Below, piece by piece: positions 383 to 47,844 of a stretch of 64,000 bases of DNA. This stretch comes from an uncultured Clostridia bacterium (lineage in GTDB: Bacteria; Bacillota; Clostridia; TANB77; CAG-508). Each line of letters starts with the position of its first letter. Within the stretch, counting starts at the first letter, position 1. The stretch spans positions 6,177 through 70,176 of the forward strand of contig CAKPGM010000001.1 of NCBI GenBank assembly GCA_934154805.1. The letters run 5' to 3'. A program made the position numbers and the translations under genes. Under the pieces are notes generated by a model. It was not told the origin of the DNA. It made no database searches and worked only from the letters and a program-made list of their open reading frames with translations.

Positions 383-562
383 TTATGGCATTATTATCCA
401 GCTAAATGATAATCTTCCTTTTACCACTTTATTAGCATCCGCTACTGATTTATAAGGTCCGTCATGTCCCCTAGCAGAGTCTAATATATAAAATTTATAT
501 CCTTGACTTTTGTATTGACTTGGTGCTGGAATAATTGCTAATATGTGTCCGAGATTCTCCTC
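383..562 (-). pseudogene. out-of-frame C-terminal remainder of the hydrolase at 495-3029
   Basis: The +1 frame, open from 562 to stop 383-385, reads EENLGHILAIIPAPSQYKSQGYKFYILDSARGHDGPYKSVADANKVVKGRLSFSWIIMP. The GH(I/V)xxI segment is where C39-like peptidases carry the catalytic His. That frame is closed by TAA TAG immediately upstream (568-563), so the shift lies at about 551-562. Confidence 0.55.
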
Positions 563-3029
563 CTATTACAGGATATCCTTTTTCCAACGCTTGTAATGCT
601 TCAGATTCTGTACATGCTTTTGAAGTAACACCATAATATTTTTTCAAAAAGTCACTTCCAAATATTTTGCTACTAGATCCTTCTCCTGGAACATAATAAC
701 TTCCATCAGGCCAATATCTCGCAATGTTTGCTACAACCGTAGTAGGAGTTATTGATGAATCACCTTTTAATCCTGCCAATATCATTGCTAGACTAGTAGG
801 TCCACAACCAGATCTTGGTATAGTAGATGTTCCATATGGTCCAGGGTAGTCTTTTTGTAGATAATGCGGATAGTTATATCCATCTGCTGATACAGTATCT
901 ACATCGAAGTTAGCACTTCCAGCAAAATCTTCTGGATGTAGTTCCATCGATATAGACTTGTTATATGATAATATGTATCTACCTTCTGAGAATAATATTC
1001 TTCTATCATATCCTCTATTTCCTTGAAAAGCCCTGCTAGAATTAAATACAGCATCACATGGTCCACCATTTTCCATATATGATTTAACTATACTTGATAT
1101 AAAATATCCTTGATATCTGATATCTGTTAGGCAGTCTATTTGGTAACTCATGAAATCATTTTCACTATATCCCATATCATTTATAGTCTTGATAACTTCT
1201 GCTCTTCTAGCTTCCCAAACATCTCTTGATACATTGTCTACTATATCGACTGGCATTGTTGATGTTCCAAAATTATGATACTTACTATCATCTACATTTA
1301 TTCCATATTGCTGAAAATAGTTCTTACAAGGTTGTATATTTACTCCATATCCATAGTTCATAGTTCCATTAGATGTTCCATCATCAGTCATATAATATAA
1401 GGTTTGATCTTGCGATATATATTTTGCCGTATTTTCTGTATACGCTGTTCCTTCCTTATTTCTGTATAACCATACTGCTGCATTTTCATGCAAACATGTC
1501 CAGTTCCAACCTATACTTCCGTTTGCTGGACTAGTTGTTTCAAATTCAAATAATCTCTGATCAAGTTGTTGTACTCCAAAGTCCTCATCAGTTGCTTTAT
1601 ATAATAGATATTTTATTAAGTCTATCATATCAACAGTCTTCCTACTATTTCCCAACATTTTAAACAACCAAGATGTAGTACTCATTATCTTACTTTTTGC
1701 ATTTCTAAACTCAGGTTTATTCAGTAATGTAACAAAATTATCTTCAGTTGAGTTTGGATCCGTTTTTTCTTCTATGACAGGCGTACCTTCTTTATATCTT
1801 TTTGATCCCATAGCCATTGTGTAATTAGTGCTTTTCTTTTCTCGTGTTGTATTTGGATCATTTGTAGCTTCAACTTTTGAATCAGTTTCTAGTACTGTAT
1901 TTGTTTCACCTGTTTGTGTTAGCCCCTGTATTTCTTGAGTATATTCTATGCTATATTTTGCAAACCAAACATCAGCATATGTAGGAACAACTTCTACTGT
2001 ATCTGTATTTGTTGTTACAACAGTTGTAACAGTTCTATCTTCTTTTGAAACATCCGTTACATAATCTCCCGTTTCTTCATCAAGATATGTATCTGTAATG
2101 GTGATTTCATAAGTTTCCACAGTTGTTTCGACTGTCGTCGTTAAATTGTCAAATACAGTTAATGTTATTTCACTATCTAATGCTAGTTTAGCTACTTCAT
2201 TTACAAATTCTTCTTCTGTACTTTTTACAAGTAGCGCCCACAAAAAGTCAAACGGCATAACAAAGCCATCTAACATATCTTTATAATCTATATACACTTC
2301 ATTAAGTGTAAATTCATAATCACTTCCACTCGATATTCCTGGTACATCCGAGGTAACTTCTGTTATAATCTCCACATATTGTGCAACAACAAGCTGTCCA
2401 TCGCTATTAACCGAATATTTAAATAATGCTGTTTTATCACCAGAAACTACTAATGAATGAAAATCCTCATAATTCATATATTCTAGCTCAATAGTTGCAT
2501 CATCAGTAGTTCCTATATTCGAGTTTGCAACGGTTCTTCTATTTACGGTTATTACTCCATTAAATTCATCTTGCTTTTTAGGATCTGCATCACCTATTTT
2601 AAAATTTTGAGTTACAAGTTCAGCCTTTAAAAAATTGGTTAGATATTCTTGTTGATTTTCCTTAGTAATGTATGTGTGCAATACACTTTCATCATCTTCT
2701 AACTTCTTTATTATTGTATCTACCAATTCTGGCATATCGAAATCATATCCTTCGTCATCTTCTTTTATTGGAAGATTTTCACCCAATTTTTCCTGTATAA
2801 CCTTTTCTATTGTACTTGGTACATTTCCTTTTTTTCCAGCTCTATAAGAACCGTTATGTATAACTACAATTTCAATTATTCCAGCTATCAATGTAGTTAT
2901 TAGCAATGCTATTAATATATATGGTAATATTTTAAGGGCTAATGCTAATAGCATCTTCGCAATAAATTTTCCTACTTTTTTTAATGTCTTTTTTGCCTGA
3001 TCAAAAAACTTACTTTCATTTTCTTCCAT
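495..3029 (-). CDS. conjugation-associated cell-wall hydrolase: N-terminal TM anchor, T/E/V-rich linker, C-terminal papain-like (C39_2/NlpC-type) peptidase; C-terminus interrupted by a frameshift
   Basis: 844-aa ORF with TM helix LLALALKILPYILIALLITTLIAGIIEIVVI. The C-terminal motif RSGCGPTSLAMILAGLKGD is typical of the C39-like catalytic Cys region. The gene lies at the end of the T4SS operon. The frame ends abruptly 8 codons after VIGGE. Confidence 0.6.
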   Translation of the reverse strand: MEENESKFFDQAKKTLKKVGKFIAKMLLALALKILPYILIALLITTLIAGIIEIVVIHNGSYRAGKKGNVPSTIEKVIQEKLGENLPIKEDDEGYDFDMPELVDTIIKKLEDDESVLHTYITKENQQEYLTNFLKAELVTQNFKIGDADPKKQDEFNGVITVNRRTVANSNIGTTDDATIELEYMNYEDFHSLVVSGDKTALFKYSVNSDGQLVVAQYVEIITEVTSDVPGISSGSDYEFTLNEVYIDYKDMLDGFVMPFDFLWALLVKSTEEEFVNEVAKLALDSEITLTVFDNLTTTVETTVETYEITITDTYLDEETGDYVTDVSKEDRTVTTVVTTNTDTVEVVPTYADVWFAKYSIEYTQEIQGLTQTGETNTVLETDSKVEATNDPNTTREKKSTNYTMAMGSKRYKEGTPVIEEKTDPNSTEDNFVTLLNKPEFRNAKSKIMSTTSWLFKMLGNSRKTVDMIDLIKYLLYKATDEDFGVQQLDQRLFEFETTSPANGSIGWNWTCLHENAAVWLYRNKEGTAYTENTAKYISQDQTLYYMTDDGTSNGTMNYGYGVNIQPCKNYFQQYGINVDDSKYHNFGTSTMPVDIVDNVSRDVWEARRAEVIKTINDMGYSENDFMSYQIDCLTDIRYQGYFISSIVKSYMENGGPCDAVFNSSRAFQGNRGYDRRILFSEGRYILSYNKSISMELHPEDFAGSANFDVDTVSADGYNYPHYLQKDYPGPYGTSTIPRSGCGPTSLAMILAGLKGDSSITPTTVVANIARYWPDGSYYVPGEGSSSKIFGSDFLKKYYGVTSKACTESEALQALEKGYPVIGGESRTHISNYSSTKSIQKSRI

Positions 3030-3039
3030 TTAAACTCTC

Positions 3040-3951
3040 CTAAATATTTACACTATATTCCATATTTGTATATGTTCCATCATTATTTTGTTTCTTTGCG
3101 TTCGAAAATACTATACACTTAAATTCTCTCTCATATGTATATGCATTAGTAAATTTTATAGCAACATTCATTGTTACACCTTTTCTAATATAAATTTGCT
3201 CTTTTGTCAAAGTATCATTTGTTACAGAATATTTTATATCATTATTATCCAGTAAATATAGTGTATTTGTATTTTTTAAGTCATCTAACAATACATCTGT
3301 ATCACCATTATTTGTTATCTGTAGATAATATCTTTCATATTTCATATGTGTGTCTTTTTTTGTAACCTTAAATACTATATTATCTTGTTTTGTTTCTTTA
3401 TTTACTTCCGAGCTTCCTATATAATTATTAATATTTAGTTTGTATTGATTATCTTCTGTTACAACAGAAATAAAATCTTGTATATTATTTTCTGCCGTTC
3501 CTCCTGTTAAAAGTACGTCTTCTTTTATATCCACTTTAAAAGTATTATTAATCCAATTTTGTATTGTATAAGATTTTTTCGACCCAAAATTTTTTTCGTA
3601 ATAGTTATTGTAAAAATTGTCATAGCTAGAGTACATTATGCTTTGACAGTCTTTGCTAAGCATATTATATGCTTCTTCTGATTTTCCTTCATTGCATAAT
3701 TTAATGAATTCTTCTATAACATCTTTATGCTTAGAAGTTAATTCTAAATCAGTTGTTGAATCTTCTGAAATGGCTGGGCGTAAATCAGAATCTATATGTC
3801 TGTTTTGTTCTATAATTTCATTTAAATTATCTTGATTAGATTCCTTTGCAAAGTAATTTAGCGTCTGAATAATTGCAATTATAAATATAATGGCTAATAT
3901 TACTAAAATTATTTGTTTTCGATTTTGATTTATTATTCTTCTTATATTCAT
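3040..3951 (-). CDS. TM-anchored transfer-cluster protein of unknown function (position and size compatible with a VirB8/TcpC-like component)
   Basis: 303-aa ORF with an N-terminal TM helix (QIILVILAIIFIIAIIQTL) followed by a soluble region. It sits between the VirB6-like gene and the hydrolase. The VirB8-like assignment rests on position and architecture only. Confidence 0.35.
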   Translation of the reverse strand: MNIRRIINQNRKQIILVILAIIFIIAIIQTLNYFAKESNQDNLNEIIEQNRHIDSDLRPAISEDSTTDLELTSKHKDVIEEFIKLCNEGKSEEAYNMLSKDCQSIMYSSYDNFYNNYYEKNFGSKKSYTIQNWINNTFKVDIKEDVLLTGGTAENNIQDFISVVTEDNQYKLNINNYIGSSEVNKETKQDNIVFKVTKKDTHMKYERYYLQITNNGDTDVLLDDLKNTNTLYLLDNNDIKYSVTNDTLTKEQIYIRKGVTMNVAIKFTNAYTYEREFKCIVFSNAKKQNNDGTYTNMEYSVNI

Positions 3952-4014
3952 ACTTTCCTCATTTCTTCTTATGCCAATTAAGCCAAAAGGAATACTCCTT
4001 TTGGTTTAATTGTT

Positions 4015-6708
4015 TTATTCTCCTTTTACAATTCTTATCTGATTCATAGCATTGTCTGCCGCTTTTTTTGCCTGTCTAGCCGACAATCCCTTTTTCTCAA
4101 ATTTTCTTGCTAATGCTTTTGTCGCATTATCTGTTTTGTTTGCTTCACGGAACGTTCCAGCATCATAATGTGTAGATAGATTTGCTATTTCTATTGCATA
4201 TTTTTGTGCAAATTCTTCTTGTCTGCTTAATTCTTGTTGCAATCTTTGTTGTTCTGCTTCATTATTTGCAGCTTGTGCTGACTGCAATTGCTCTCTAACA
4301 CTTGCTGTTCTATTCTCTTTGATGTCATATATTCTATCCATCTCTTTGATGTCTGTTACACCGGTTCTTCTATATTTAGCGTACTCTTGCATTCTCTTTT
4401 CAATTTCTCTATTACGCTCTGAACGTTTCATTTCAGGATTTTCTTTCATTATCTTATCTGCAACATGTTGTCTATTTCCTATATCATTCATAAATTCTGC
4501 ATCAGCTTGTCTATTTTGAGCTTCTTTTTTACCATACGTAATTTGATTATATGCATCGCTAAGTGAACTTGCTGTATTCTCAATTCCTCTTGCTGTTTTG
4601 TTTCCTATTGCCTTTCCTGCAATTCCTCCTAACATTGCGCCTTTCCACATATCGTTCATATTACCGCCGACAATTCCACCGGCTAAACCTATTGCTGATC
4701 CTCCTATTAGAGCAGATCCTCTTAATGCCACTCTACCAGCACCTAATGCTGCTCTCTTTAGTAAAGTTTTGCCTGTCTTTCCTACTGGTATATCGTATTT
4801 TTCTCTTAAGTATTTTGTAAAGTTGCTTTCAGTTTTTCCTGTATTTGGAACACTAGTTACATCTAAGTCATCTTGGTTTGTAATAGGTAATCCACTCTCT
4901 GAATCCTGCAAGCTTGGTCCAGAATTTGCTCCTAAATTTCCTAATTCTTCATCAGTATATTCTCTACCAAATCCTATGTATTCATCCTCTTCATTATTTG
5001 TATTATTAGTATTCTGATTATTAGTATCTTGATTTGCTCCCATAGTAGCTGTTGCAGCTGCCGCACCACTTCCTATTGCCAAGTTGCCATCTTCGGCAGC
5101 TAGTGCATCTAATCCGTCTCCTTCTACTATATTTGGATCTGTAACATTTTTGTCTTTTGTTCTAATTTTATTAGATCCGCCACTTTCTTTACTTTTCTCT
5201 TTACCTTTTCCTAATCTTTGTAGTGCTTGTGCAGCTAATGCTCCACCTGCGAATCCCCCCATTGCTGGAGCTGTTTCGCTTCTGATACCAAACATACTCT
5301 TAATCATTTTTTCTGCTGGTACAATGAATGCTAATACACACACAGCATATAATGGAGATTCTACAACTAAGTCGATTGCTGATGTTACAAGTATCGTGTA
5401 TAGGACCAAATGTATAATTGGTAACATTGCATTTACTAAATATTCTCTTAACCAATATTCAAAAGCTTGTGCCCTTGAATCTTTTACTTTATCTATAGGA
5501 TATGTAAGCGCTACAAGTGGTGCAATTATTGTTAAAAATGTTAATATTACTATCCTCTTCAAATATATAAAGAAGAAATATATTGTATAGAATGTTAATG
5601 CTAAATACATTATTGTATATGTTAATTTATTCCATCCATCCGGATTTTCTGATAATATTCTATTATATCCAATTAGGTTTGTTGGAAATATTCCAGGTAC
5701 ATCGCCAGTATATGCACCAGAATCCTGATCTTTGAGTTGTTCAGTTAGCTCTTTTACTCCTGCTCCCATACTTGGATTTGTAGCTACTGCATTATTATAT
5801 GCATCATTCCAACTGTATTTAACTGTATTTCCGTTTGTGTCTACTACATTGACCAAAATGGTATTAATTGTTTTTGAACTTGTTTTTGGATTATCTGTTA
5901 CAAATAGTTTTTGTATTTCTTTTACCATAGTCATCGAGAATACCATAATATAGTGTAAGAAAAATACTAGGCATAGAGCAATTACCCAATCAATAAACAT
6001 TTGCTTATATTTTGCCTTGTCTGACGCAACAGCAGAAGTTATCATTCTTATTGCGACATACACTAACACAGAAAGTAATCCAACAATTGCAATTAATCTA
6101 AGTCCTTGATACCAATTTGAAATTACTTTTTTTAGTTTTCCAGCCGTTGAATATTCTTCTCCTCCTATCATTGTGTCTTGATATTCCGAAGAAGTAGTAT
6201 CACCAAAAAAGTCTGCGTCTAGGAAAGCAACTCTTCCAGCAAATATTTCAATTGGAGTCACCTTAATATTTGGTGCAACTAAATCCGATTTCTTTTTTAA
6301 ATATCCCATACCTTCAGGAACTGCGTCAGTATTTCTTCCAACTATCATTACTTTCTTTTCTTTCATATTAGATGATGGATTATCAACATCAAATATTGCT
6401 CTAATGCTTGCTTCATCTGTTTTTCCATCACATTGGTCAAAAACTACATCTCTCAAAGCCTTGTATACTCCCGAGTCAGATTTATTTACGGCAGACCCTA
6501 ATAACGAATCACCAGTTCCTACTGTTTTTCCTATTAAATTATTTGCAACATCACCGAGTGCTCTTAATAAATCGCATATTGGTTCTATAAGTTCACCACC
6601 AAAATCTGCCTGACTATATGTTGGCATTACAAAGGTAAATGTTAGCATTACTATTAGTAGTGATATGATAATCTTTTGCTTTATGCTTTTAACTTTTTTG
6701 TCTTTCAT
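4015..6708 (-). CDS. VirB6/TrbL/TcpH-like polytopic T4SS membrane protein with a long C-terminal extension
   Basis: 897-aa ORF with a signal peptide or TM at the N-terminus and several internal TM helices (e.g. LRLIAIVGLLSVLVYVAIRMI, VIALCLVFFLHYIMVFSM, IMYLALTFYTIYFFFIYL, ILTFLTIIAPLVAL). It also has an N/T/Q low-complexity stretch (NQDTNNQNTNNTNNEEDE), a Gly-zipper segment (GSALIGGSAIGLAGGIVGG) and a charged coiled-coil tail. It lies directly downstream of the VirB4 gene. Confidence 0.55.
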   Translation of the reverse strand: MKDKKVKSIKQKIIISLLIVMLTFTFVMPTYSQADFGGELIEPICDLLRALGDVANNLIGKTVGTGDSLLGSAVNKSDSGVYKALRDVVFDQCDGKTDEASIRAIFDVDNPSSNMKEKKVMIVGRNTDAVPEGMGYLKKKSDLVAPNIKVTPIEIFAGRVAFLDADFFGDTTSSEYQDTMIGGEEYSTAGKLKKVISNWYQGLRLIAIVGLLSVLVYVAIRMITSAVASDKAKYKQMFIDWVIALCLVFFLHYIMVFSMTMVKEIQKLFVTDNPKTSSKTINTILVNVVDTNGNTVKYSWNDAYNNAVATNPSMGAGVKELTEQLKDQDSGAYTGDVPGIFPTNLIGYNRILSENPDGWNKLTYTIMYLALTFYTIYFFFIYLKRIVILTFLTIIAPLVALTYPIDKVKDSRAQAFEYWLREYLVNAMLPIIHLVLYTILVTSAIDLVVESPLYAVCVLAFIVPAEKMIKSMFGIRSETAPAMGGFAGGALAAQALQRLGKGKEKSKESGGSNKIRTKDKNVTDPNIVEGDGLDALAAEDGNLAIGSGAAAATATMGANQDTNNQNTNNTNNEEDEYIGFGREYTDEELGNLGANSGPSLQDSESGLPITNQDDLDVTSVPNTGKTESNFTKYLREKYDIPVGKTGKTLLKRAALGAGRVALRGSALIGGSAIGLAGGIVGGNMNDMWKGAMLGGIAGKAIGNKTARGIENTASSLSDAYNQITYGKKEAQNRQADAEFMNDIGNRQHVADKIMKENPEMKRSERNREIEKRMQEYAKYRRTGVTDIKEMDRIYDIKENRTASVREQLQSAQAANNEAEQQRLQQELSRQEEFAQKYAIEIANLSTHYDAGTFREANKTDNATKALARKFEKKGLSARQAKKAADNAMNQIRIVKGE

Positions 6709-6727
6709 ACATACTCCTTTTTTTGCT

Positions 6728-8689
6728 CTATTTTCTTTGCTTCTCTGCTAGTTTATTAATATTGGTTTCAACAAATTCGAATTCCTTTGCAGTTGGTGTT
6801 ATTTGCAAGATAGCTGTGTCTTTTCCAACCTTTAATAAACCTTCTCCTTTGTTACATGTTACTAAGAAACCTGCTTCTCCTTCACTTAATTTAAATACTT
6901 CTTTTAGGTATTTTATTTCTGATTTATCTTGTGCTAATAATAATTTTGTATCTGAAGATGTAAGAACTGCTTGAACTTCTGGTTTCTCATAGAAGTCTTG
7001 GAATCTTTGCGAGATAATTGCTAAAGATACATTTCTTTTTCTAGCACGTCTTGCCATTGTGTTTAAGAAGTCAACTGCTTCTGGATATGGCAATAACATC
7101 CACGCCTCATCCACAAGAACCCTCTTCTTAGCAGCTTTTTTTCTATCTTCACTATTTTTCTTAACATATTTTTCCCAAATCCATGATAGTAGTATTTGTT
7201 GTGCAAGTGGTCTTGCAAATCTCTCTTCTAGTTGTGATATATCTAGATTAATGAATAATGTTCCGTCTAATAAATCAAATGTAGATTGTCCATCAAAATA
7301 TGCCATTTGTCCATCATATTTTCTTATGTACTGTTTCATAACCTTTAACAGATAGCTATAGTGAAATCTATAGTCTGGGTTTTGGTTTTCCTCTGATTTT
7401 CTCAATAGTCTTTCATACCAAGATCCTATTGTTGGCATTTGTTTCTTTCTTCTTCCAAGCATATTACCAGAGCTTTCCATAGTGCTTTCATATATACTTG
7501 AAGGATCACTATTAATACCTGCTGCAGCATATTCTTCTGATACTGCTTCTGCTATTATTTGTTTTGTTAACTCATTTACTTCTTGGCTTCTTGTACTACC
7601 TCTTGCCATTGTTAACAACGCCTGTGTAACGTCCTCCACTTTGTTTTCTACATTTAGTATCGTTTTTTCTCTTCCTGTTATTTCGTCTTTTACCATCTCT
7701 GTTTCTATATCAAAAACATTTATTATAGTGTTCGATGTAGGGCTTAATATAACATTTGTTCCGCCAAGACTTTCTGCAACTATTCTATACTCGCCCTCAG
7801 CATCTAGTGCTAAACTTTGTATTCCCATTAGAACTGCAGATCTTGATATTAGAGTCTTCATTGTAACAGATTTACCAGCACCAGACTTAGCAAATATAAC
7901 CATGTTATAGTTTGTTAATGAATTGTGGAAATTATCAAATAATATTGGTACTCCAGTTTGTTTATTGAACCCTAGTGGTATTCCTGTTATATGTCCAACC
8001 TCCGATGTTGTAAATGGAAATACTGTTCCCATTGATCTATGGTCAAAAGTGTGAGTTCTCTTTATTTTATCAGAATTGAATGGCAAGTTTGATTTAAACG
8101 CTTCTTCTTGCATTCCCCAGGCACTCTTTATTCCTACTAATGATTTAGACATTTCAGAAGACAATAGTTTTGTTAGTTTATCTAAATCTTCCAAATTGTA
8201 AGCAAACAACGTTGCTACGATTGAAGCTGAATATAATTTATTAAAGCCTGCAGCTATTTCATCTCTTAATTGCTCTGCTTCAAATCTTTTTTGTGCTAAT
8301 GTACTTTCTCTATTTATATTTCCCTTATCTGCTGCCACAATTCTTTCTGTTTCAAGTTCATTTATTGTTCTATTTAATTCATTTTGAGAACTAGATTCTG
8401 GAATAGGATTTATATATATAGATGTATTTATATCTCCAAACAAGTACATATCTCTAAATAATTCAGGGAATGTACACATTCTTGGAAGTGCTGATATAAA
8501 GAAACTTCTTGCATATCTTTTTGTATTTGAAATTATCTCCAAGTGATCGATATTGCTAGCGTCTATTCCTGATGGTGCAATTAGTTCTTTTATTGTTTTT
8601 TTATGTAATATCTTTGGATCTTCTCCAACAGAATAATCATTTCTGTTTGCTTGAAGGTTATCTTGTGTTTTTTTCTTCTTATTGAACAT
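6728..8689 (-). CDS. virB4: VirB4/TraE-family conjugal transfer ATPase
   Basis: 653 aa. Walker A is FAKSGAGKSVTMK and Walker B-like is RVLVDEAWMLL. The N-terminal LIAPSGIDASNIDHLEI... resembles Gram-positive VirB4 (TcpF/Orf16-type). Its start overlaps the end of the upstream gene by 11 nt. Confidence 0.85.
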   Translation of the reverse strand: MFNKKKKTQDNLQANRNDYSVGEDPKILHKKTIKELIAPSGIDASNIDHLEIISNTKRYARSFFISALPRMCTFPELFRDMYLFGDINTSIYINPIPESSSQNELNRTINELETERIVAADKGNINRESTLAQKRFEAEQLRDEIAAGFNKLYSASIVATLFAYNLEDLDKLTKLLSSEMSKSLVGIKSAWGMQEEAFKSNLPFNSDKIKRTHTFDHRSMGTVFPFTTSEVGHITGIPLGFNKQTGVPILFDNFHNSLTNYNMVIFAKSGAGKSVTMKTLISRSAVLMGIQSLALDAEGEYRIVAESLGGTNVILSPTSNTIINVFDIETEMVKDEITGREKTILNVENKVEDVTQALLTMARGSTRSQEVNELTKQIIAEAVSEEYAAAGINSDPSSIYESTMESSGNMLGRRKKQMPTIGSWYERLLRKSEENQNPDYRFHYSYLLKVMKQYIRKYDGQMAYFDGQSTFDLLDGTLFINLDISQLEERFARPLAQQILLSWIWEKYVKKNSEDRKKAAKKRVLVDEAWMLLPYPEAVDFLNTMARRARKRNVSLAIISQRFQDFYEKPEVQAVLTSSDTKLLLAQDKSEIKYLKEVFKLSEGEAGFLVTCNKGEGLLKVGKDTAILQITPTAKEFEFVETNINKLAEKQRK

Positions 8690-9863
8690 CTTCTTTTGTC
8701 TCCTTTCTTTGTCTCTTTCTCTCTTTTCTTATTCTTTCTTGTGCATCCTCTGCAACTTCGTCTCCTAGCATGCCCGCATTTTCCTGAATATACATTTCTG
8801 CTAGACTGCTTACAATATCATCGATATTTTGTTTTTTCTCTGTGTATTTCTTTGCTTTTTCAGATTGTACTTCCATAACTTTTTCGTTTGCTTTTTGTTT
8901 TGCTTTTATTTCTATCTCCTCATCAAGTAATTGCATCTTCTTATCCATGTAATCTTGTGCTGTTAAATATAGCTCATCAAATCTTGCTCTTCTTGCTCTA
9001 TCTATTCCATAATCTTCAGATTCATCTCTATTGTATGCTACATATAATAAATCAGCTAATTCTGTAGAGTTTAATATTCTTCCTACTACTCCTGATACGC
9101 TTAAAGCTCTAATTACTGATTTAGATTTTGTATACAACTCTGAAAAAGCTCTCTCTCTAATTTCGTCTTTATCTAAATATCCTTCATCTCCAGTTTCAGA
9201 ATAGTATGAAAGAACAGCGTAATATTTTTCATTTAGTATATTTTTATTTAGACTCATTCTTTCTGTATTATAGATTATATCTTTTCCATATTCATATAGA
9301 TTTTTTTGTTTGATATATTCATAGTATTCTTTTCTTACTAAATCTTCCGATATATTAGGATTCTTTGCTATTTGTTCATATCTCATTTTTTGTTTAGCAT
9401 ATTCTTTTTCTATCTCATCAACCTTTTCCCTATAATTTTGCAAACTACTTTCAAGGTTAATTTTTCTTGTTTGTATGTATAATTGTATTGGTTCTTTTAA
9501 AGTGTTTAAAAATTGAGAAAAACCTTCTTCTACACCAACTTTTTCCTCTTGTGACATCAAATCATAGTTTATTCCTTGGCATTCAATAACCATTATAAAC
9601 CTTTTTCCATTCTTTTGGATAATCATATTGTCTTCTATTTTATCAAACTCCATAAAGTTGAATACTGAATCTATAGTATATTGCTTAATTTTTGACTTTG
9701 AATTTTTTGCATTCTCATCTTCAGTTTGTTTTAGACTTTCCTCACCTTTTTCTTTCATTTTCATCTTTAGGTATATAACAGCTAAAACAATCAGTAATAT
9801 TACCATTATTCCCGCAATTATTAATAGTGCTGTTGTTAATAAACTTATATTATTATTTGTCAT
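8679..9863 (-). CDS. T4SS-associated membrane-anchored coiled-coil protein (function unknown)
   Basis: The ORF track gives 8679-9887. I prefer the ATG at 9863 (MTNNNISLL...) because GGGGAGGA lies 6 nt upstream. One TM helix (LLTTALLIIAGIMVILLIVLAVIYL) is followed by K/E-rich coiled-coil sequence. The gene overlaps both neighbours, which suggests translational coupling. Confidence 0.5.
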   Translation of the reverse strand: MTNNNISLLTTALLIIAGIMVILLIVLAVIYLKMKMKEKGEESLKQTEDENAKNSKSKIKQYTIDSVFNFMEFDKIEDNMIIQKNGKRFIMVIECQGINYDLMSQEEKVGVEEGFSQFLNTLKEPIQLYIQTRKINLESSLQNYREKVDEIEKEYAKQKMRYEQIAKNPNISEDLVRKEYYEYIKQKNLYEYGKDIIYNTERMSLNKNILNEKYYAVLSYYSETGDEGYLDKDEIRERAFSELYTKSKSVIRALSVSGVVGRILNSTELADLLYVAYNRDESEDYGIDRARRARFDELYLTAQDYMDKKMQLLDEEIEIKAKQKANEKVMEVQSEKAKKYTEKKQNIDDIVSSLAEMYIQENAGMLGDEVAEDAQERIRKERKRQRKETKEDVQ

Positions 9864-10200
9864 CTGTATCCTCCCCATCATATACATATATTTTGTTTTT
9901 CTTTTGCTTAAATTTTATTGCTCTTATAATTACATCATCCAGCGTTTGTCCTGCATTCACTTTTGCCCATTTAACCCCCGATAAATTTGGTACTTTGAAA
10001 GTTCCAATAACAAACCCGATTAATGCAAATATTATTAGTAAGATTATTCCAATTTGTGTCAATTTTATTAATTTGAATATAAAAAATAGTATCAACCCTA
10101 CAATCGACAATCCTGCTGTAAACATTAGTGATTTTCTGGTAAATATAAATAATATTCTACCCTCGCCTTTCACATTTCTAGGTAAATTATATGTTCCCAT
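9853..10200 (-). CDS. PrgI/TcpE-family (VirB3-like) small T4SS membrane protein
   Basis: 115 aa. The N-terminus YNLPRNVKGEGRILFIFTRKSLMF is followed by two TM helices. It lies immediately upstream of the VirB4 region, which is the usual VirB3 position. Confidence 0.65.
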   Translation of the reverse strand: MGTYNLPRNVKGEGRILFIFTRKSLMFTAGLSIVGLILFFIFKLIKLTQIGIILLIIFALIGFVIGTFKVPNLSGVKWAKVNAGQTLDDVIIRAIKFKQKKNKIYVYDGEDTDDK

Positions 10201-42305: not shown

Positions 42306-42906
42306 TTATTTTTCTTCTTTTACGGATTCAATCTCTTCGTCTGTCGCTCCAGAGTATTTTTTTATTAACTCTATTTCCAAATTATCTTTCAACATTCTTT
42401 TAATAATTTCTGTTTTTGTTTCTTTTACTCCGTAATTCTTTTCCTATTTCTGTTCCTTCTCTAATTCCAGTATTGTATAGTGCTTTTTCATCCATTATGG
42501 CTTTTTGTCTTAGTTCTGCTAGTCTCTCCATTTTCTCATCTTCGCTCATTTCTCTTACTGTTATTACTGCTTTTTTTACATCTTCATTCTTTTCCATAAT
42601 TTCTTTAACCTCCTCAGAGTTCGGATCTTCTAAAAACATTACCCATTGGTTCTTCTTATTATTCTTATCATTTTGGTATGCTTCTCTTACTCTTTTTAAG
42701 TTAATTATACGTATTTCAAACACGTCTGTCAACACTTTCTCTGGCTTTTCTTTTTCTCTTACGTTCCATATTGTTTCCATTCTTTTTAACTCTTTCGTTA
42801 CATCTATTTCAAAATCTGTTATTGCTATTATTACTACTTTTCTTGCTTTATTATATGTATCTCCTCTCTGTATTTGCTTGGCATATATTCTTAAAATTCG
42901 ACATGT
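42306..42906 (-). pseudogene. decayed Rpn-family (YhgA-like, PD-(D/E)XK) recombination-promoting nuclease / putative transposase gene
   Basis: The frame of track ORF 42400-42780 stays open upstream without an ATG (…RILRIYAKQIQRGDTYNKARKVVIIAITDFEIDVTKELKR-METIW…) until a stop at 42907-42909, so the nuclease N-terminus is missing. After ...EIGKE, the +1 frame continues with family-typical sequence (KNYGVKETKTEIIKRMLKDNLEIELIKKYSGATDEEIESVKEEK) to a stop at 42306-42308. This implies a 1-nt indel in the A-run near 42445. Confidence 0.55.
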
Positions 42907-43029: not shown

Positions 43030-43383
43030 TTAATCTTCTTTCATCTTACTTAGTATTGTTGACATACTATTGCAAAACAAGATCATATCATCTATATTTT
43101 TATTGTCACATTTTCTCATTATATTTTCTAGTTCTTTATTGATTTCTTTTGACTTTAATTCTTTGTTAGTCATTTTATCAAAAAATATGATCCTATCTAA
43201 TGAGAGTTGCAATACCGTACAAATTTTTAAAACTGTTTCTACACTAGGTTTTGTTTTTCCTCTTTCTATATTGCTATAAAAGTTATTAGAAATATCTGCC
43301 TGCTCTGCAACCTCTGTTTGCTTCATATTTAGTTCTTCTCTCTTTTGTTTAAACATTTTTCTTAATTCTTCATAATAGTTCAT
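43030..43383 (-). CDS. XRE-family helix-turn-helix transcriptional regulator
   Basis: 117 aa. HTH_3 motif: LNMKQTEVAEQADISNNFYSNIERGKTKPSVETVLKICTVLQLSLD. Confidence 0.8.
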   Translation of the reverse strand: MNYYEELRKMFKQKREELNMKQTEVAEQADISNNFYSNIERGKTKPSVETVLKICTVLQLSLDRIIFFDKMTNKELKSKEINKELENIMRKCDNKNIDDMILFCNSMSTILSKMKED

Positions 43384-43808: not shown

Positions 43809-44210
43809 ATGAGCAAATTATATGATACATATAAGAATTTAAAGCTATGCGAAAACAATTATATTTATCTGTTCAAATCTGGTATTTTTTATATTTTACT
43901 AGCTGATGATGCTAAGCGTGTTTCTCTTTCTTTAGGACTAAAACTTACTAAGTTTAATGATGAGGTTCTAAAATGTGGCTTTCCTATTTCTGCAAAAGAT
44001 AAATATTTTCAGTTACTTAAAAATCATAATTTTGATTTTAAAATAATAGACAATAATACATCTTATAATATATGTGAATATACAGTAAAAAATGGATTTC
44101 AGGAAATGTTAGATACAATTTTAAAGGTGGATACTAATAATTTATCAATTAAAGAAGCTTATGAATTTATAGACAAAATAAAAAATATGGCTAACGCTTT
44201 ATCGCATTAG
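43809..44210 (+). CDS. small MutS-domain-I-like protein (MSL-like), copy B
   Basis: 133 aa. YDTYKNLKLCENNYIYLFKSGIFYILLADDAKRVSLSLGLKLTKFNDEVLKCGFPISAKDKYFQLLKNHNFDFKIID aligns by eye with the E. coli MutS N-terminus ([46 protein letters not shown]...[28 protein letters not shown]). Its 3' end overlaps the RT gene's 3' end by 4 nt, in convergent orientation. Confidence 0.6.
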   Translation: MSKLYDTYKNLKLCENNYIYLFKSGIFYILLADDAKRVSLSLGLKLTKFNDEVLKCGFPISAKDKYFQLLKNHNFDFKIIDNNTSYNICEYTVKNGFQEMLDTILKVDTNNLSIKEAYEFIDKIKNMANALSH

Positions 44211-45151
44211 CTCTTTTTCAATAGGTTTTTATAACAAGTTATGCTGTTAGTTAGATTAATTAAATCTATTTTTTTGTTTTCATATAGATATTTCTTGTAT
44301 TTTATTTTTCTTTTCATACTTCTATATTTTGCATATCCTCCCCTCTTATTGCGTCCTAAAAATATAAAATTATTCGTGTTTTTATATATTCTGCTTTTTC
44401 TATTTAGAACTAACTTTTCTTTATTTAAAAATATTTTAATCTTTTCAAAACACTCTTTTAGATATTCTTTTGAAGGATGAAACAACAAAAAGTCGTCCTG
44501 ATATCTTACATAATATTTTATTTTTAAATCTTCTTTTATATAATGATCTAAATCATTTAAGTAAAACACTGCTAAAACTTGACTAGTCATATTGCCTATT
44601 CCCAGTCCATTTTCTTCACTATCAATTATCTTAAACACAATATTGAGCGCATCTTTATCCTTTATTCTTTTGACTATTTTCTCTTTTAATCTCGTATGAT
44701 CTATACTCGCAAAGAATTTACTAATATCGCATTTTAATATATAATAGTCTTTGTACTTTATATTACACTTTCTAATAAAGTTTCTCTCAAGTCTCAATCC
44801 CTCTTTTGTTCCTCGATCTTTAATACTTGCTACATTCTCTGGTATTAAGCAAGGATTTAAAGTCGGATAAAGTATCTGTCTACTTACTAAATGATTTATA
44901 ATTTTATCTTGTAAATTTTGACTCACTATCCTTCGCTCTTTTGGTTCATATATTTTAAAAACTGTATATGGTCCAACTTCATAGTTTTTATTTATCATAA
45001 TATCGTATATTCTGCTTATATAAACACACTTATATTCTTTATATTTTCTTACTTTTCTTTTGTTTTTTGTATTTTTACATACTTCATCAAAAGCCTGCAT
45101 TATATTTTCCATCTTACAAACATATTGATATAAATTATTTTTTCTTTTCAT
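44207..45151 (-). CDS. DGR-type reverse transcriptase
   Basis: 314 aa: EPKERRIVS (motif 2), GLGIGNMTSQVLAVFYLN (the I/LGxxxSQ motif diagnostic of DGR RTs), and VRYQDDFLLF (the catalytic YxDD box). It has no maturase or endonuclease extension. It lies 208 nt downstream of the TR. Confidence 0.9.
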   Translation of the reverse strand: MKRKNNLYQYVCKMENIMQAFDEVCKNTKNKRKVRKYKEYKCVYISRIYDIMINKNYEVGPYTVFKIYEPKERRIVSQNLQDKIINHLVSRQILYPTLNPCLIPENVASIKDRGTKEGLRLERNFIRKCNIKYKDYYILKCDISKFFASIDHTRLKEKIVKRIKDKDALNIVFKIIDSEENGLGIGNMTSQVLAVFYLNDLDHYIKEDLKIKYYVRYQDDFLLFHPSKEYLKECFEKIKIFLNKEKLVLNRKSRIYKNTNNFIFLGRNKRGGYAKYRSMKRKIKYKKYLYENKKIDLINLTNSITCYKNLLKKS

Positions 45152-45358
45152 TAGTTTACTCCTTTATAATAATAAAAAGAAGTAGTTATAAAACTACTTC
45201 AAAAACAGTTCTAAAATATAATCCCTTTCGCAAATGCTACTAACAATCATATTTATCTATTTTTATTTATAACATATATATGTTAAAGGACTACGGTTTG
45301 TTTCTATATTATCTCTTATATGATATATTAGCATATAACCACAGTGTATAGAAGCTAT

Positions 45359-45502
45359 GGGGCGGACACCAAAGCCGTTAGCATTCCAGTTACCGTTCGA
45401 GTTGAACATATTGTTGCCAGCGTTGACATTGCCGTTATTAACATCACCAGGACCGAAGTTAGCATTGTCAGAGTTAGCATTAACAGCGGGCGAAGCTAGC
45501 CA
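45359..45502 (-). ncRNA. DGR template repeat (TR)
   Basis: 144 nt that align without gaps to 46556-46699. TR differs from VR at 23 positions, and 21 of those are adenines in the TR sense strand (T on the plus strand). It lies between avd and the RT. Confidence 0.9.
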
Positions 45503-45523
45503 CATCAACCAAGCCCTATAAAA

Positions 45524-45871
45524 CTAATTTATATTAATAGTTTTTTTCCATCCAGTTGCATATTTTATTATATCATCTAATTTTTGCCCAAATTTTACAT
45601 ATCTTTTGCTATTTATGATCTCTTTGTCATAGCATAGATTTAGTAAAAAATCTATGACTTTAACTTTTGCAATTATGTTTTCTATTAGATCTTCTCTTTT
45701 ATCTTGAGAAGTAAGATTCGCTTTATATGCAAGTTCTAACAACTCATAGCTTTCTTCTTTTAATTTGCTTTTTATTTCTATATCTTTTTTAGGAAAATTA
45801 TTTAGATGTACATCCATATAAACTATTAATTCTCTAATGTAATTTATTACTTTAAATTTTTCTTCTTTCAT
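45524..45871 (-). CDS. avd: DGR accessory variability determinant (Avd; four-helix-bundle, 23S-rRNA-IVS protein family)
   Basis: 115 aa, basic and helical (…INYIRELIVYMDVHLNNFPKKDIEIKSKL…AKVKVIDFLLNLCYDKEII…KFGQKLDDIIKYATGWKK). It lies immediately upstream of the TR and overlaps the preceding gene by 20 nt. Confidence 0.75.
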   Translation of the reverse strand: MKEEKFKVINYIRELIVYMDVHLNNFPKKDIEIKSKLKEESYELLELAYKANLTSQDKREDLIENIIAKVKVIDFLLNLCYDKEIINSKRYVKFGQKLDDIIKYATGWKKTININ

Positions 45872-46301
45872 TTATTAAACTCTCTATTTGGCTTATTAAT
45901 TCCTTATCTTTGTTATAAGTATTTAAATAATTTGTTATTTTCTCTATTCTTATTTTGATTGCATTTTCTGCCTTTCCCAACTCATAATATTTTTCATAAT
46001 TATTCAAATTCTTAAAGTTACTGTTTTCTCGTTCTTCATAGTTATTTCTTCTGTCTAGCACTATGTAATTTATTTTTTTACTTTCTAGTTGAGCTATTAC
46101 TTTATTATATGCCGATTTTGGAAAAGAACATGAATAGATATTGTTTTCTAAAATTTTTATTTTGTATTTTTCTAGATAACTAATTATAAAAGTATCTTTT
46201 CCATAGCAATAATAAAATGAACCTATTTCTATGAGTACTATATAATTTTTGCATATTTGTTTTACATTTTGTACCATATTTATTATTTTTTCTATCTTCA
46301 T
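45852..46301 (-). CDS. small MutS-domain-I-like protein (MSL-like), copy A
   Basis: 149 aa. KQICKNYIVLIEIGSFYYCYGKDTFIISYLEKYKIKILENNIYSCSFPKSAYNKVIAQLESKKINYIVLD follows the same pattern as copy B and MutS domain I. It sits between the DGR target gene and avd. Confidence 0.55.
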   Translation of the reverse strand: MKIEKIINMVQNVKQICKNYIVLIEIGSFYYCYGKDTFIISYLEKYKIKILENNIYSCSFPKSAYNKVIAQLESKKINYIVLDRRNNYEERENSNFKNLNNYEKYYELGKAENAIKIRIEKITNYLNTYNKDKELISQIESLINERRKI

Positions 46302-46393
46302 TTGTTCCTCTTTTAAAGCGAGCCCCCAGAAGTCACGAGGCCTTCTTGGGGCTTTTGCTGTTTATGTTTTGCATTCAAACAAGTTATTACTTA

Positions 46394-47746
46394 TTAGCTG
46401 GCTCCTCCACCTGAATTCCCGTAATTGCCTGCCTCTCCGTTTGTTGCATTTCCATTTGCTACAGCATCATTATTTGAGTATGCTGACCAATCGTCTTCTT
46501 TTCCATCTATTACGTGCAAATCTTCAATAGTGATATTAGAATTTAGATAAACTAGGGGGCGGACACCAAAGCCGTCAGCAAACCAGCCACCGCCCGAGAT
46601 GAACATATCGACGCCAGCGAAGACACCGCCGTTACCCACATCACCAGGACCGAAGATAGCATCGTCAGAGTAAGCATAAACACCGGGCGAAGCTAGCCAG
46701 TAAGACTTTGCATAATTTGCATCACTTGTTGTTCCACTAAACAATATTGTTTTTAATGCATCATCAATTGTTAGGTTACCCCATTGATAATAATATGCTG
46801 TTGCTGGTTCTGTTTTTGTACCTTCTGTTGCATTTGTTTTATTATTTATATAACTCTCTGGGGTATAATCACTTGATTTATATGTATATTGATTTCCTAA
46901 TACTCCCCATTTGTCTATATTAGTGTTTGAGTCTGTATTTGCATATACCTTTTGGTTAGTATAATCTACTGTCACTCCTATTAATCTATTGATTTCTTCT
47001 GCTGTCAAACTTTGTGCTGTTCCTAAACTTGTGCTATATATCCCACTTATATTTTTTAATATTGTTTTGCAATTTACATATGAATATGCTCCTTTTAAAA
47101 CCAGATATGGTGACTTTTCCCAATCTTCTGCTGTAGTATCTGTTTTCATTTCCTTTTTTATTGGACTTTGTGAGATCAACATTAGTTTTTCACCTGTTTT
47201 ATCTAGTCCTAACACTTGCCAATATGTGTTTTTTGTTGCTGTATATTTTTGGTCTGCCCATCCATTTTCATTTGTTACTGTTGTATAAGTCTTACTTTCA
47301 TCCACATAATCATTATAATTTAAATAATCCCCGACTTTTATATTTCCATCTTTAAACGCTTGTACTAAAGTTTTAGCATCTGATGGGAATCTTACTGTTT
47401 CTTTCCCTATTACTAGCTCTTTTGTGTCTTTTATGGTATTAATATCATCTTCACTTATTAGCCCTCTATCTTTTAATCTTGTTAAAAAGTCATCCATACT
47501 TTCGTGTGACCCTGCACCATTATCTGATGCAAATTTTTCAGCTTCCCATAGGCTTATTTCATCTCTTATTGAGCCAGCTCTACTTGCGTTTCTTGCATCT
47601 TTTGATTTCTGGATTATACCATTTTGATCAACTAACAAATTGATACTTACACCCGCCAGTATCAAAAGTACTACAATTGTTACTACTAGTGCTATTAATG
47701 TTATAGCATTTTGGTTCTTTAGCTTAATGTTTTTACTTTGTTTCAT
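46394..47746 (-). CDS. DGR variable (target) protein: pilin-like N-terminal hydrophobic segment and C-terminal variable ligand-binding (C-type-lectin-fold-like) region
   Basis: I chose the start at 47746 (MKQSKNIKLKNQNAITLIALVVTIVVLLILAGVSI…) after GGAGG. The track ORF starts 15 codons earlier. The C-terminal sequence YWLASPGVYAYSDDAIFGPGDVGNGGVFAGVDMFISGGGWFADGFGVRP is encoded by the VR. Confidence 0.85.
   Translation of the reverse strand: MKQSKNIKLKNQNAITLIALVVTIVVLLILAGVSINLLVDQNGIIQKSKDARNASRAGSIRDEISLWEAEKFASDNGAGSHESMDDFLTRLKDRGLISEDDINTIKDTKELVIGKETVRFPSDAKTLVQAFKDGNIKVGDYLNYNDYVDESKTYTTVTNENGWADQKYTATKNTYWQVLGLDKTGEKLMLISQSPIKKEMKTDTTAEDWEKSPYLVLKGAYSYVNCKTILKNISGIYSTSLGTAQSLTAEEINRLIGVTVDYTNQKVYANTDSNTNIDKWGVLGNQYTYKSSDYTPESYINNKTNATEGTKTEPATAYYYQWGNLTIDDALKTILFSGTTSDANYAKSYWLASPGVYAYSDDAIFGPGDVGNGGVFAGVDMFISGGGWFADGFGVRPLVYLNSNITIEDLHVIDGKEDDWSAYSNNDAVANGNATNGEAGNYGNSGGGAS
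46556..46699 (-). repeat. DGR variable repeat (VR) inside the target gene
   Basis: It is the counterpart of TR 45359-45502 at a constant offset of 1197 nt. 14 of the 15 Asn (AAY) codons in the TR are replaced in the VR by Y, D, I, G, F or V codons. Confidence 0.9.
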
Positions 47747-47844
47747 TTGTTTACCTCCATATATTCTTAAAAATTTGGTTATTATATTCATATCTTATAT
47801 CAACAATTTCCTTTTGTAAATACTTTTCGAGATTTTTTCTTATT

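Follow-up and report, generated by a model that had tools for sequence, protein, structure and literature searches.

The 64,000-nucleotide stretch of DNA analyzed here (the window; positions 6,177 to 70,176 of contig CAKPGM010000001.1, from an uncultured Clostridia bacterium) carries a complete diversity-generating retroelement (DGR) on its minus strand at 44207-47791, in which the order is target gene, MSL1, avd, template repeat (TR), and reverse transcriptase (RT) gene. MSL1 and a second gene, MSL2, which lies on the opposite strand and converges on the RT gene, encode the two MutS-like (MSL) mini-proteins that are the subject of this analysis (Table 1). The element has an RT, an adenine-biased pair of TR and variable repeat (VR), and a VR at the 3' end of the target gene. 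TR and VR differ by 24 mismatches, 22 of which fall at TR adenines, and adenine occupies 36 of the 148 TR positions. No HRDC match was found among the cassette proteins by Pfam scan. GC content is ~25 to 35% across the window, and the chromosomal marker genes in it encode SpoIIE, a penicillin-binding protein, MreBCD, MecA, and PcrA. The region is one active chromosomal DGR, and its host is an uncultured low-GC spore-forming gut Clostridia bacterium.

Table 1. Features of the DGR cassette and adjoining genes (window coordinates)
Feature	Coordinates	Strand	Evidence or context
XRE-family helix-turn-helix (HTH) gene, 117 aa, putative regulator	43030-43383	-	HTH_3, E=1e-16; divergent from the DUF6809-MSL2 unit
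DUF6809-like gene, 87 aa	43527-43790	+	PF20648, 24.2 bits (below threshold); directly upstream of MSL2
MSL2, MutS domain I mini-protein, 133 aa	43809-44210	+	MutS_I, 35.5 bits; convergent with RT
DGR RT, 314 aa	44207-45151	-	RVT_1, E=7.5e-15; phrog_1423 reverse transcriptase, E=1e-81
Hairpin followed by T-run, TR-RT spacer	45179-45200	-	Terminator-like consensus match
TR	45355-45502	-	TR/VR alignment
avd, 115 aa	45524-45871	-	bAvd PF22296, 41.1 bits (threshold 40); phrog_3206 "Avd protein of DGR," E=2e-19
MSL1, MutS domain I mini-protein, 149 aa	45852-46301	-	MutS_I, 30.4 bits; 3' end overlaps avd start
GC-rich hairpin, 12-bp stem with one mismatch, 9-nt loop	46321-46353	-	Read from sequence; partial match in a motif scan
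DGR target (variable) protein, 465 aa	46394-47791	-	VR near C terminus; pilin-like N-terminal hydrophobic segment
VR	46552-46699	-	Within the target gene, C-terminal part
Second XRE-family HTH gene, 114 aa	47912-48256	+	NCBIfam and PHROG HTH regulator matches; divergent from the target operon

First, the identity of the two mini-proteins was examined. The sequence-only reading of this DNA had likened both to the N-terminal mismatch-binding domain (domain I) of MutS, and the open reading frame (ORF) coordinates, overlaps, and motifs that it gave for them proved exact: MSL1 and avd overlap by 20 nt, and MSL2 and the RT gene overlap by 4 nt, 3' end to 3' end. Shine-Dalgarno-like sequences precede MSL1, MSL2, and the 87-aa gene upstream of MSL2. 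A profile search and a structural superposition, both of which had been proposed as checks, were carried out. Both proteins score above the gathering threshold of Pfam MutS_I (PF01624; 20.6 bits), with E values of 4.9e-7 for MSL1 and 1.2e-8 for MSL2. A profile of MSL2 homologues matched residues 15 to 94 of E. coli MutS in the PDB (E=3.7e-6), with Phe placed on F36 and Ile on E38. AlphaFold2 (AF2) models made from the family alignments had predicted local distance difference test (pLDDT) scores of 92.2 (MSL1) and 92.4 (MSL2), and Foldseek comparison of these models with the PDB (E<=1e-3) returned 49 and 54 matches, respectively, all of them to domain I of MutS, MSH3, or MSH6. The root mean square deviation (rmsd) on MutS/MSH domain I was typically ~1.4 to 2 Å over 70 to 90 columns. 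Three independent lines of evidence thus identify each protein as a freestanding homologue of MutS domain I.

Residue F36 of MutS, which stacks on the mismatched base, is needed for mismatch binding, while E38 is required for mismatch discrimination and ATPase signaling (PMC3848065). The corresponding wedge motifs are GSFYY in MSL1 and GIFYI in MSL2; the Phe of each falls on F36 of E. coli MutS in the alignment, and in place of E38, MSL1 has Tyr and MSL2 has Ile. The earlier observation that the Phe is kept and the Glu replaced extends to both families, since the Phe36 equivalent is invariant (119/119 MSL2 and 84/84 MSL1 homologues) and the Glu38 equivalent is never Glu in these 203 proteins. 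At the latter position, MSL2 homologues have Ile in 111 of 119 cases and nearly all have Ile, Leu, or Val, with one Thr; the 84 MSL1 homologues have mainly Tyr (60), Asn (12), or His (8). The Phe-X-Glu motif of the MutS family is therefore retained in its Phe alone. The ATPase domain is indeed absent, as had also been stated: no connector, core/lever, clamp, or ABC ATPase domain (domains II to V) was detected by Pfam in either protein, and past domain I the AF2 models contain only two long helices at each C terminus. Thus, the MSLs share with E. coli and Taq MutS the domain I fold and the aligned wedge Phe and differ from them in having no connector, core, clamp, ATPase, or HTH domain and in the consistent replacement of Glu38. 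Without domains II to V and Glu38, the MSLs are not repair-competent MutS proteins.

The sequence-only reading mentioned an MSL accessory gene from DGR surveys, and such a gene is indeed on record (Wu et al. 2018, PMC5758913; Macadangdang et al. 2024 bioRxiv). As defined by Wu et al. (NAR 46:11; PMC5758913), MSL was present in 16 of 372 DGRs, was 112 to 283 aa long, and belonged to Architecture D; their text describes it as always accompanying avd and never HRDC. MSL has also been noted in Legionella and Bacteroides DGRs, including the Msl of Bfr/Bth/Bun (Macadangdang et al. 2024 bioRxiv). Both window proteins agree with this definition in length (149 and 133 aa), in MutS homology, and in their location in a DGR cassette with avd and no HRDC match, and, like the Wu et al. 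MSL and the Bacteroides Msl, they are small homologues of the MutS mismatch domain inside avd-bearing, HRDC-less cassettes. The window cassette differs in that it carries two MSL genes from diverged subfamilies, each coupled to a different partner gene, with DUF6809 and HTH genes recurring alongside. The main text of Wu et al., supplementary tables aside, reports doubled avd and doubled HRDC but not doubled MSL (PMC5758913). No description of a DGR with two MSL copies was found in the portions of the literature that were searched; later literature searched described neither MSL subfamilies nor tests of MSL function. One MSL per DGR is thus already known and ordinary. The recurrent two-subfamily MSL architecture, its partner-specific coupling, and the associated DUF6809 and HTH genes appear to be undescribed.

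Next, the relationship between the two proteins was analyzed. MSL1 and MSL2 are 26% identical over 86 aa by BLASTP (E=3e-8), and profile-profile comparison with hhalign (probability, 97.3%; E=1.7e-11) aligned domain I alone; the C-terminal helical parts of the two families could not be aligned with each other. A joint alignment separated the families into two clean groups, which also differ in isoelectric point (pI), with MSL1 being basic (9.1±0.8) and MSL2 near neutral (7.5±1.4). By these sequence comparisons, MSL1 and MSL2 are two deeply diverged subfamilies rather than recent duplicates. MSL family lengths range from 120 to 153 aa, and 304 MSL2 homologues were retrieved. A two-family profile identified 705 cluster representatives (E<=1e-10) among 1.84 billion proteins, nearly all of them standalone proteins of 120 to 150 aa. 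The larger subfamily is that of MSL2, not that of MSL1, and MSL2 occupies the canonical position upstream of avd in other DGRs. MSL1-type genes were not found in viral contigs, and MSL2-type genes were found in nine; standalone MutS_I proteins also occur among predicted phage structures. In a neighbor-joining tree of MSL2, copies from dual loci (those with both MSL1 and MSL2) were scattered, and the choice between a single origin and multiple origins of the dual layout is beyond the resolution of a 130-aa protein.

The representative-protein search also recovered MutS_I domains in other contexts. Two giant proteins, P0224 (2323 aa) and P0255 (1756 aa), combine DUF285 (BspA-like repeats), four to six tandem MutS_I domains, and an ArdC N-terminal domain, which is an anti-restriction, single-stranded-DNA-binding domain. 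Here, MutS domain I without an ATPase seems to serve mobile elements in a second way, perhaps by acting on DNA as it enters the cell. In P0260 (202 aa), an HTH_26 (Cro/C1-type) domain is fused to an MSL2-type MutS_I domain; this could be a true fusion or a pair of adjacent in-frame genes merged by the gene caller, and it mirrors the HTH genes found beside MSL2 in many loci. The N-terminal extensions of three longer MSL2 proteins (P0223, P0237, and P0257) were considered as DUF6809 fusions; no Pfam or custom profile match was obtained, and this was rejected.

Genomic context was then surveyed from both sides. With the MSL2 alignment as the query, 80 species-representative genome loci were collected, all from metagenome-assembled genomes (MAGs) of uncultured gut Clostridia, and surveyed loci were annotated with hidden Markov models (HMMs) built for this analysis. 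A DGR RT adjoins MSL2 in 69 of the 80 loci. Forty loci have a single MSL in the canonical position (MSL2-Avd-RT, followed by a convergent target), and 11 have a single MSL2 that converges on RT-Avd-target. Both MSL1 and MSL2 are present in 14; three more, in which the contig ends after MSL2-RT and before MSL1 could appear, are probably dual. One locus has another layout, and the remaining 11 have no RT nearby. At the species level, both MSLs are therefore present in 14 to 17 of the 69 MSL2 DGR loci, and MSL2 stands either beside the RT or, in single-MSL DGRs, upstream of Avd-RT. With the MSL1 alignment as the query, 80 metagenome loci were obtained and grouped into 30 clusters at 90% identity. 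Their context is invariably target-MSL1-Avd-TR, and MSL2 also lies beside the RT in 11 of the ~22 informative clusters. Six of these 11 dual clusters have an MSL2-RT operon that converges on the TR (type C), and five have the window layout, in which the RT is codirectional with Avd and MSL2 converges on the RT (type D). DGRs with MSL1 only and an intact RT also occur.

A survey of co-occurrence with DGR RTs had been suggested as a check of the DGR association, and the association is supported by the 69 of 80 MSL2 loci beside a DGR RT and by the constant position of MSL1 beside avd. Two points of the sequence-only reading required revision. The two mini-proteins were said to bracket the RT, but only MSL2 abuts it; avd and the TR lie between MSL1 and the RT. 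The convergent unit of MSL2 with an 87-aa partner is present in the window as described but is not a one-off, since the dual layout recurs in many gut Clostridia, mostly with MSL2 codirectional with the RT and overlapping the RT start. The orientation of the window RT is opposite to that in this commoner layout (the MSL2-RT operon), and as a result DUF6809-MSL2 is left as a separate unit that converges on the RT.

The coupling of each MSL to its partner is tight. The overlap of MSL1 with avd is constant, measuring 20 nt in 36 and 29 nt in 12 of 64 distinct loci, and the median gaps are 0 nt for MSL2 to RT and −4 nt for MSL2 to Avd. An orthologous locus between mecA and pcrA retains the full layout of the window at 55% (MSL2) and 70% (MSL1) identity, and type C and some type D dual loci are at chromosomal sites unrelated to mecA-pcrA. 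The RT gene as a phase-variable invertible segment was considered and rejected, because good flanking inverted repeats are lacking and the orientations split by species lineage; the opposite orientations of types C and D are treated here as an evolutionary inversion.

Several individual loci are worth recording. In L019 (10001-12868), MSL2-Avd-RT converges on target-MSL1-Avd-TR, giving two avd and two MSL genes in one species; this may be an intermediate in the origin of the dual layout by merger of two cassette types. The L115/L116 lineage (L115, 2206-2671; L116, 2659-2859) has MSL2 broken into two ORFs alongside intact MSL1, Avd, and RT genes, which reflects either a frameshifted pseudogene or an assembly error. 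Five of the 11 MSL2 loci without an RT are on truncated contigs, and about six are genuine orphans in housekeeping neighborhoods. The flanks of these orphan MSL2-type genes (L017, L027, L050, L085, L089, and L092) lack an RT over as much as 10 kb, to the limit of each contig, and several of the genes have DNA-metabolism genes as neighbors, namely, those for an AddA/UvrD-like helicase (L017), a PHP-domain DNA polymerase III alpha subunit (L089), and MutS2 (L085). The orphans may work for a DGR located at another genomic site or do something different. The closest match in the genome collection (L014, CAVFFR010000005.1; 90% MSL2 identity, same synteny) is labeled "Bacteroidaceae bacterium"; it is probably a misbinned or mislabeled MAG, because its gene content (MreBCD, MecA, PcrA, and a sporulation-type neighborhood) is Clostridia-like.

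To assess selection, ratios of nonsynonymous to synonymous substitution rates (dN/dS) were calculated against close orthologues. Values were 0.11 to 0.18 for MSL2 and 0.06 to 0.13 for MSL1, compared to 0.04 to 0.22 for the DUF6809 gene, 0.01 to 0.04 for Avd, and 0.02 for RT. Both MSLs are under purifying selection. Among strains whose TR is 98 to 99.5% identical to that of the window, the differences between VRs fall specifically at positions of TR adenines; such VR variation over a conserved TR indicates that the dual-MSL element has diversified in natural populations. In one strain with an MSL1 100% identical to that of the window (L103, 1981-2181, compared with window 46517-46717), an in-frame gap of 42 nt appears inside the VR when it is aligned with the TR and the other VRs, due to either a real deletion or an assembly collapse.

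These data bear on whether MSL2 belongs to the DGR at all. The DUF6809-MSL2 unit, with its HTH gene, could instead be foreign to the element: a neighboring or relic module, such as the leftover of a second DGR, or a duplicate that is redundant and has no distinct role. In the window, the unit is transcribed separately and toward the RT, orphan MSL2 genes exist, L019 looks as if two cassettes had merged, the RT is intact in MSL1-only DGRs, and MSL2 is disrupted in L115/L116. We nevertheless consider this explanation very improbable and poorly supported, because the MSL2-RT adjacency recurs: every dual locus places MSL2 directly against the RT, whichever of the two orientations it has and although the chromosomal sites are unrelated. 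In addition, MSL2 overlaps the RT start in the commoner layout and is itself under purifying selection, and no second RT, TR, or VR was found nearby within the window.

The genes that accompany MSL2 were also characterized. The 87-aa ORF has a GGAG motif 10 nt upstream of its ATG and ends 18 nt upstream of MSL2. Its score against PF20648 (DUF6809) is below the gathering threshold of 27 bits; precomputed annotation assigns PF20648 to the identical protein P0121, and a related 147-aa protein in L055 scores 27.7 bits, above the threshold. A homologue search with the 87-aa protein returned near-identical proteins only, a limit of the word index, and distant relatives were found by iterated HMM searches of the loci. 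These relatives have a common C-terminal "(Y/H)L(S/A)YK(I/V)G-L-DG" motif, and some have an extra N-terminal domain. At least 20 loci have such a gene next to MSL2, on one strand or the other and usually with an HTH gene adjoining. No mention of DUF6809 was found in the literature searched. Many dual loci have an HTH gene on their MSL2 side, and in dual loci located elsewhere on the chromosome, a homologue of the second HTH gene of the window adjoins the target gene. Paired XRE HTH genes bracketing the cassette recur in L004, L014, L055, L061, L084, L129, and L162, which suggests dedicated transcriptional control of the DGR. By inference from gene context, the DUF6809 and HTH genes most likely regulate expression of the MSL2/RT side of the cassette.

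What might two MSLs do in one DGR? The sequence-only reading suggested that a standalone mismatch-binding module would recognize or shield the mismatched cDNA:target heteroduplex, a plausible role from the sequence features and one consistent with the published finding that host MutS suppresses retrohoming 5- to 10-fold. We tentatively prefer to view the MSLs as mismatch binders without an ATPase that would accompany the RT-Avd particle and shield the cDNA:VR heteroduplex from host repair. Each MSL would be made in step with its gene neighbor, Avd or RT, and would join the RT-Avd-TR RNA particle. When adenine-mutagenized cDNA pairs with the VR, the conserved Phe wedge would allow the MSLs to bind the mismatch-dense heteroduplex. 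They would be unable to license repair, because Glu38, the connector, the clamp, and the ATPase are lacking; host MutS would be occluded, and the mutations would survive until fixed by replication. The two subfamilies would act together, perhaps paired asymmetrically in the manner of the two domain I copies within a MutS dimer or else one step after the other, and the DUF6809 and HTH proteins would most likely regulate expression.

Shielding is favored because the wedge Phe is retained while the features that license repair are lost, because the MSLs are coupled to Avd or RT, and because retrohoming must create a mismatch-dense heteroduplex. Deletion of host mutS increased Bacteroides DGR retrohoming 5- to 10-fold, in an all-or-nothing pattern (bioRxiv 10.1101/2024.11.15.621889), and this too supports the reading, as does the practice in E. 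coli DGR reconstitutions of coexpressing a dominant-negative MutL to suppress mismatch repair (MMR) or deleting mutS. Engineered MMR suppression (dominant-negative MutL E32K or ΔmutS in DGR and retron recombineering) resembles the role proposed for the MSLs in that a mismatched cDNA:target heteroduplex escapes repair. It differs in being artificial and genome-wide, whereas MSL is natural, element encoded, and presumably local. Physical association of domain I with a DGR RT has a precedent in three RTs with a C-terminal MutS_I-like extension described by Wu et al. (PMC5758913). These fusions tie the domain to the RT as MSL2-RT adjacency and overlap do, with the difference that MSL2 is a separate gene and, in the window, is on the strand opposite to that of the RT.

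Several points weigh against shielding. The clamp gives MutS its affinity, and the MSLs are isolated domain I proteins without one. DGRs with MSL1 only and with MSL2 only have intact RTs, which means that a DGR can dispense with one or the other paralogue and does not depend on a heterodimer. The orphan MSL2 genes stand alone in housekeeping contexts, and in the L115/L116 lineage MSL2 is split. Finally, mutS was reported to be dispensable for Bordetella phage DGR retrohoming (PMC5758913).

The pairing of the two MSLs deserves separate comment. MutS dimers and the MSH2-MSH6 and MSH2-MSH3 heterodimers place two nonidentical copies of domain I on one DNA (PMC3848065), and MSL1-MSL2 pairing is hypothesized by analogy, from gene adjacency or overlap and co-occurrence. 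Single-MSL DGRs, orphan MSL2 genes, and the disrupted MSL2 of L115/L116 argue against an obligate heterodimer. A bolder version of the proposal, which we consider unlikely, is that MSL1 and MSL2 form an asymmetric ATPase-less "mini-MutS" that arrives with the RT-Avd particle and holds the adenine-mismatched cDNA:VR heteroduplex in a clamp. It would be a retroelement-encoded local anti-mismatch-repair device, with its expression switched by the HTH and DUF6809 genes and the same domain reused in tandem in the giant ArdC mobile-element proteins, where it would protect incoming DNA.

The same structural evidence, namely, the conserved Phe wedge and the domain I fold, together with the tight gene coupling to cDNA-producing Avd and RT, would equally fit a role of the MSLs in integration or annealing. 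As such factors, they would recognize or stabilize the kinked, mismatched cDNA:VR heteroduplex or D-loop or would counter MutS-dependent anti-recombination, thereby allowing homeologous cDNA to anneal to the VR and take its place. The integration step of retrohoming is still unexplained in the literature, and the combination of four to six MutS_I domains with an ArdC N-terminal domain in the giant proteins hints at a role on incoming single-stranded DNA. The present data do not separate this explanation from shielding. However, most DGRs retrohome without an MSL, given that 16 of 372 carried one in the text of Wu et al. (PMC5758913), and MSL is thus not a core integration factor; we regard an integration role as somewhat doubtful.

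The differences between the subfamilies raise another alternative, in which the MSLs would be structural or chaperone subunits of the RT-Avd-TR RNA particle and the domain I fold would be a protein or RNA scaffold without mismatch recognition, with MSL1 serving Avd and MSL2 serving RT. Each subfamily is adjacent to and overlaps its own partner, the C-terminal helical extensions differ and are not mutually alignable, and the residue at the Glu38 position differs systematically; the published RT-MutS_I fusions (PMC5758913) would also fit. Nevertheless, invariance of the wedge Phe in 203 homologues is most simply explained by retained base stacking with DNA, and the BPP-1 RT-Avd functions without such a subunit. 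We therefore judge a purely structural role to be quite improbable.

The main open step in DGR biology is the replacement of the VR by mutagenized cDNA and the escape of that cDNA from mismatch repair. The same step limits engineered DGR mutagenesis, which now relies on dominant-negative MutL or ΔmutS hosts, and MSL is the sole natural accessory factor that points at mismatch handling. The finding of two specialized MSL subfamilies, with Avd and RT as their respective partners and often retained together, splits the question of MSL role into separable, testable parts. At 133 to 149 aa, the MSLs are also compact candidate parts for element-local repair suppression in DGR and retron editing tools. 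For the DGR specialist, these observations are useful rather than startling.

Other features of the cassette were noted. The IMH (initiation of mutagenic homing) is the sequence at the VR 3' end that directs retrohoming, and the GC-rich hairpin of the window follows the target gene and its VR. In DGRs, inverted repeats rich in GC have been described on the downstream side of the IMH (PMC5758913). The 3' end of convergent MSL2 contains a terminator-like hairpin (44190-44211, minus strand) for the transcript of the RT gene, and a further hairpin with a T-run is in the TR-RT spacer (Table 1), the region whose RNA recruits RT-Avd in BPP-1. A promoter scan of this AT-rich DNA gave 35 sites compared to 37 expected, i.e., no excess. 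The N terminus of the target is prepilin-like (…NAITLIALVVTIVVLLILAGV…), with a Pfam N_methyl score of 15.4 bits, below threshold. From its sequence, the diversified target could be exposed at the surface as a type IV pilin-like protein or a pseudopilin.

Farther from the cassette, the products of a large-gene cluster at 495-9887 (minus strand) include one of 844 aa that has a C39-like peptidase domain (495-3029), another of 897 aa without a Pfam match (4015-6708), and a P-loop ATPase that resembles TraG/VirB4 (6728-8689); the cluster may be a secretion or conjugation-like system. An association of Rpn-like PDDEXK_2/Transposase_31 genes or gene fragments with the DGR was considered and rejected as too weak (20 of 183 loci, at variable distances of up to a few kb). 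Rpn-like PD-(D/E)XK copies are located at 42400-42780 (minus strand) in the window, where the copy is a 126-aa C-terminal fragment, at 10315-11508 in L001, at 9209-10075 in L008, and in L060, L078, and L131, and their presence near DGRs may reflect the high copy number of this family in these genomes.

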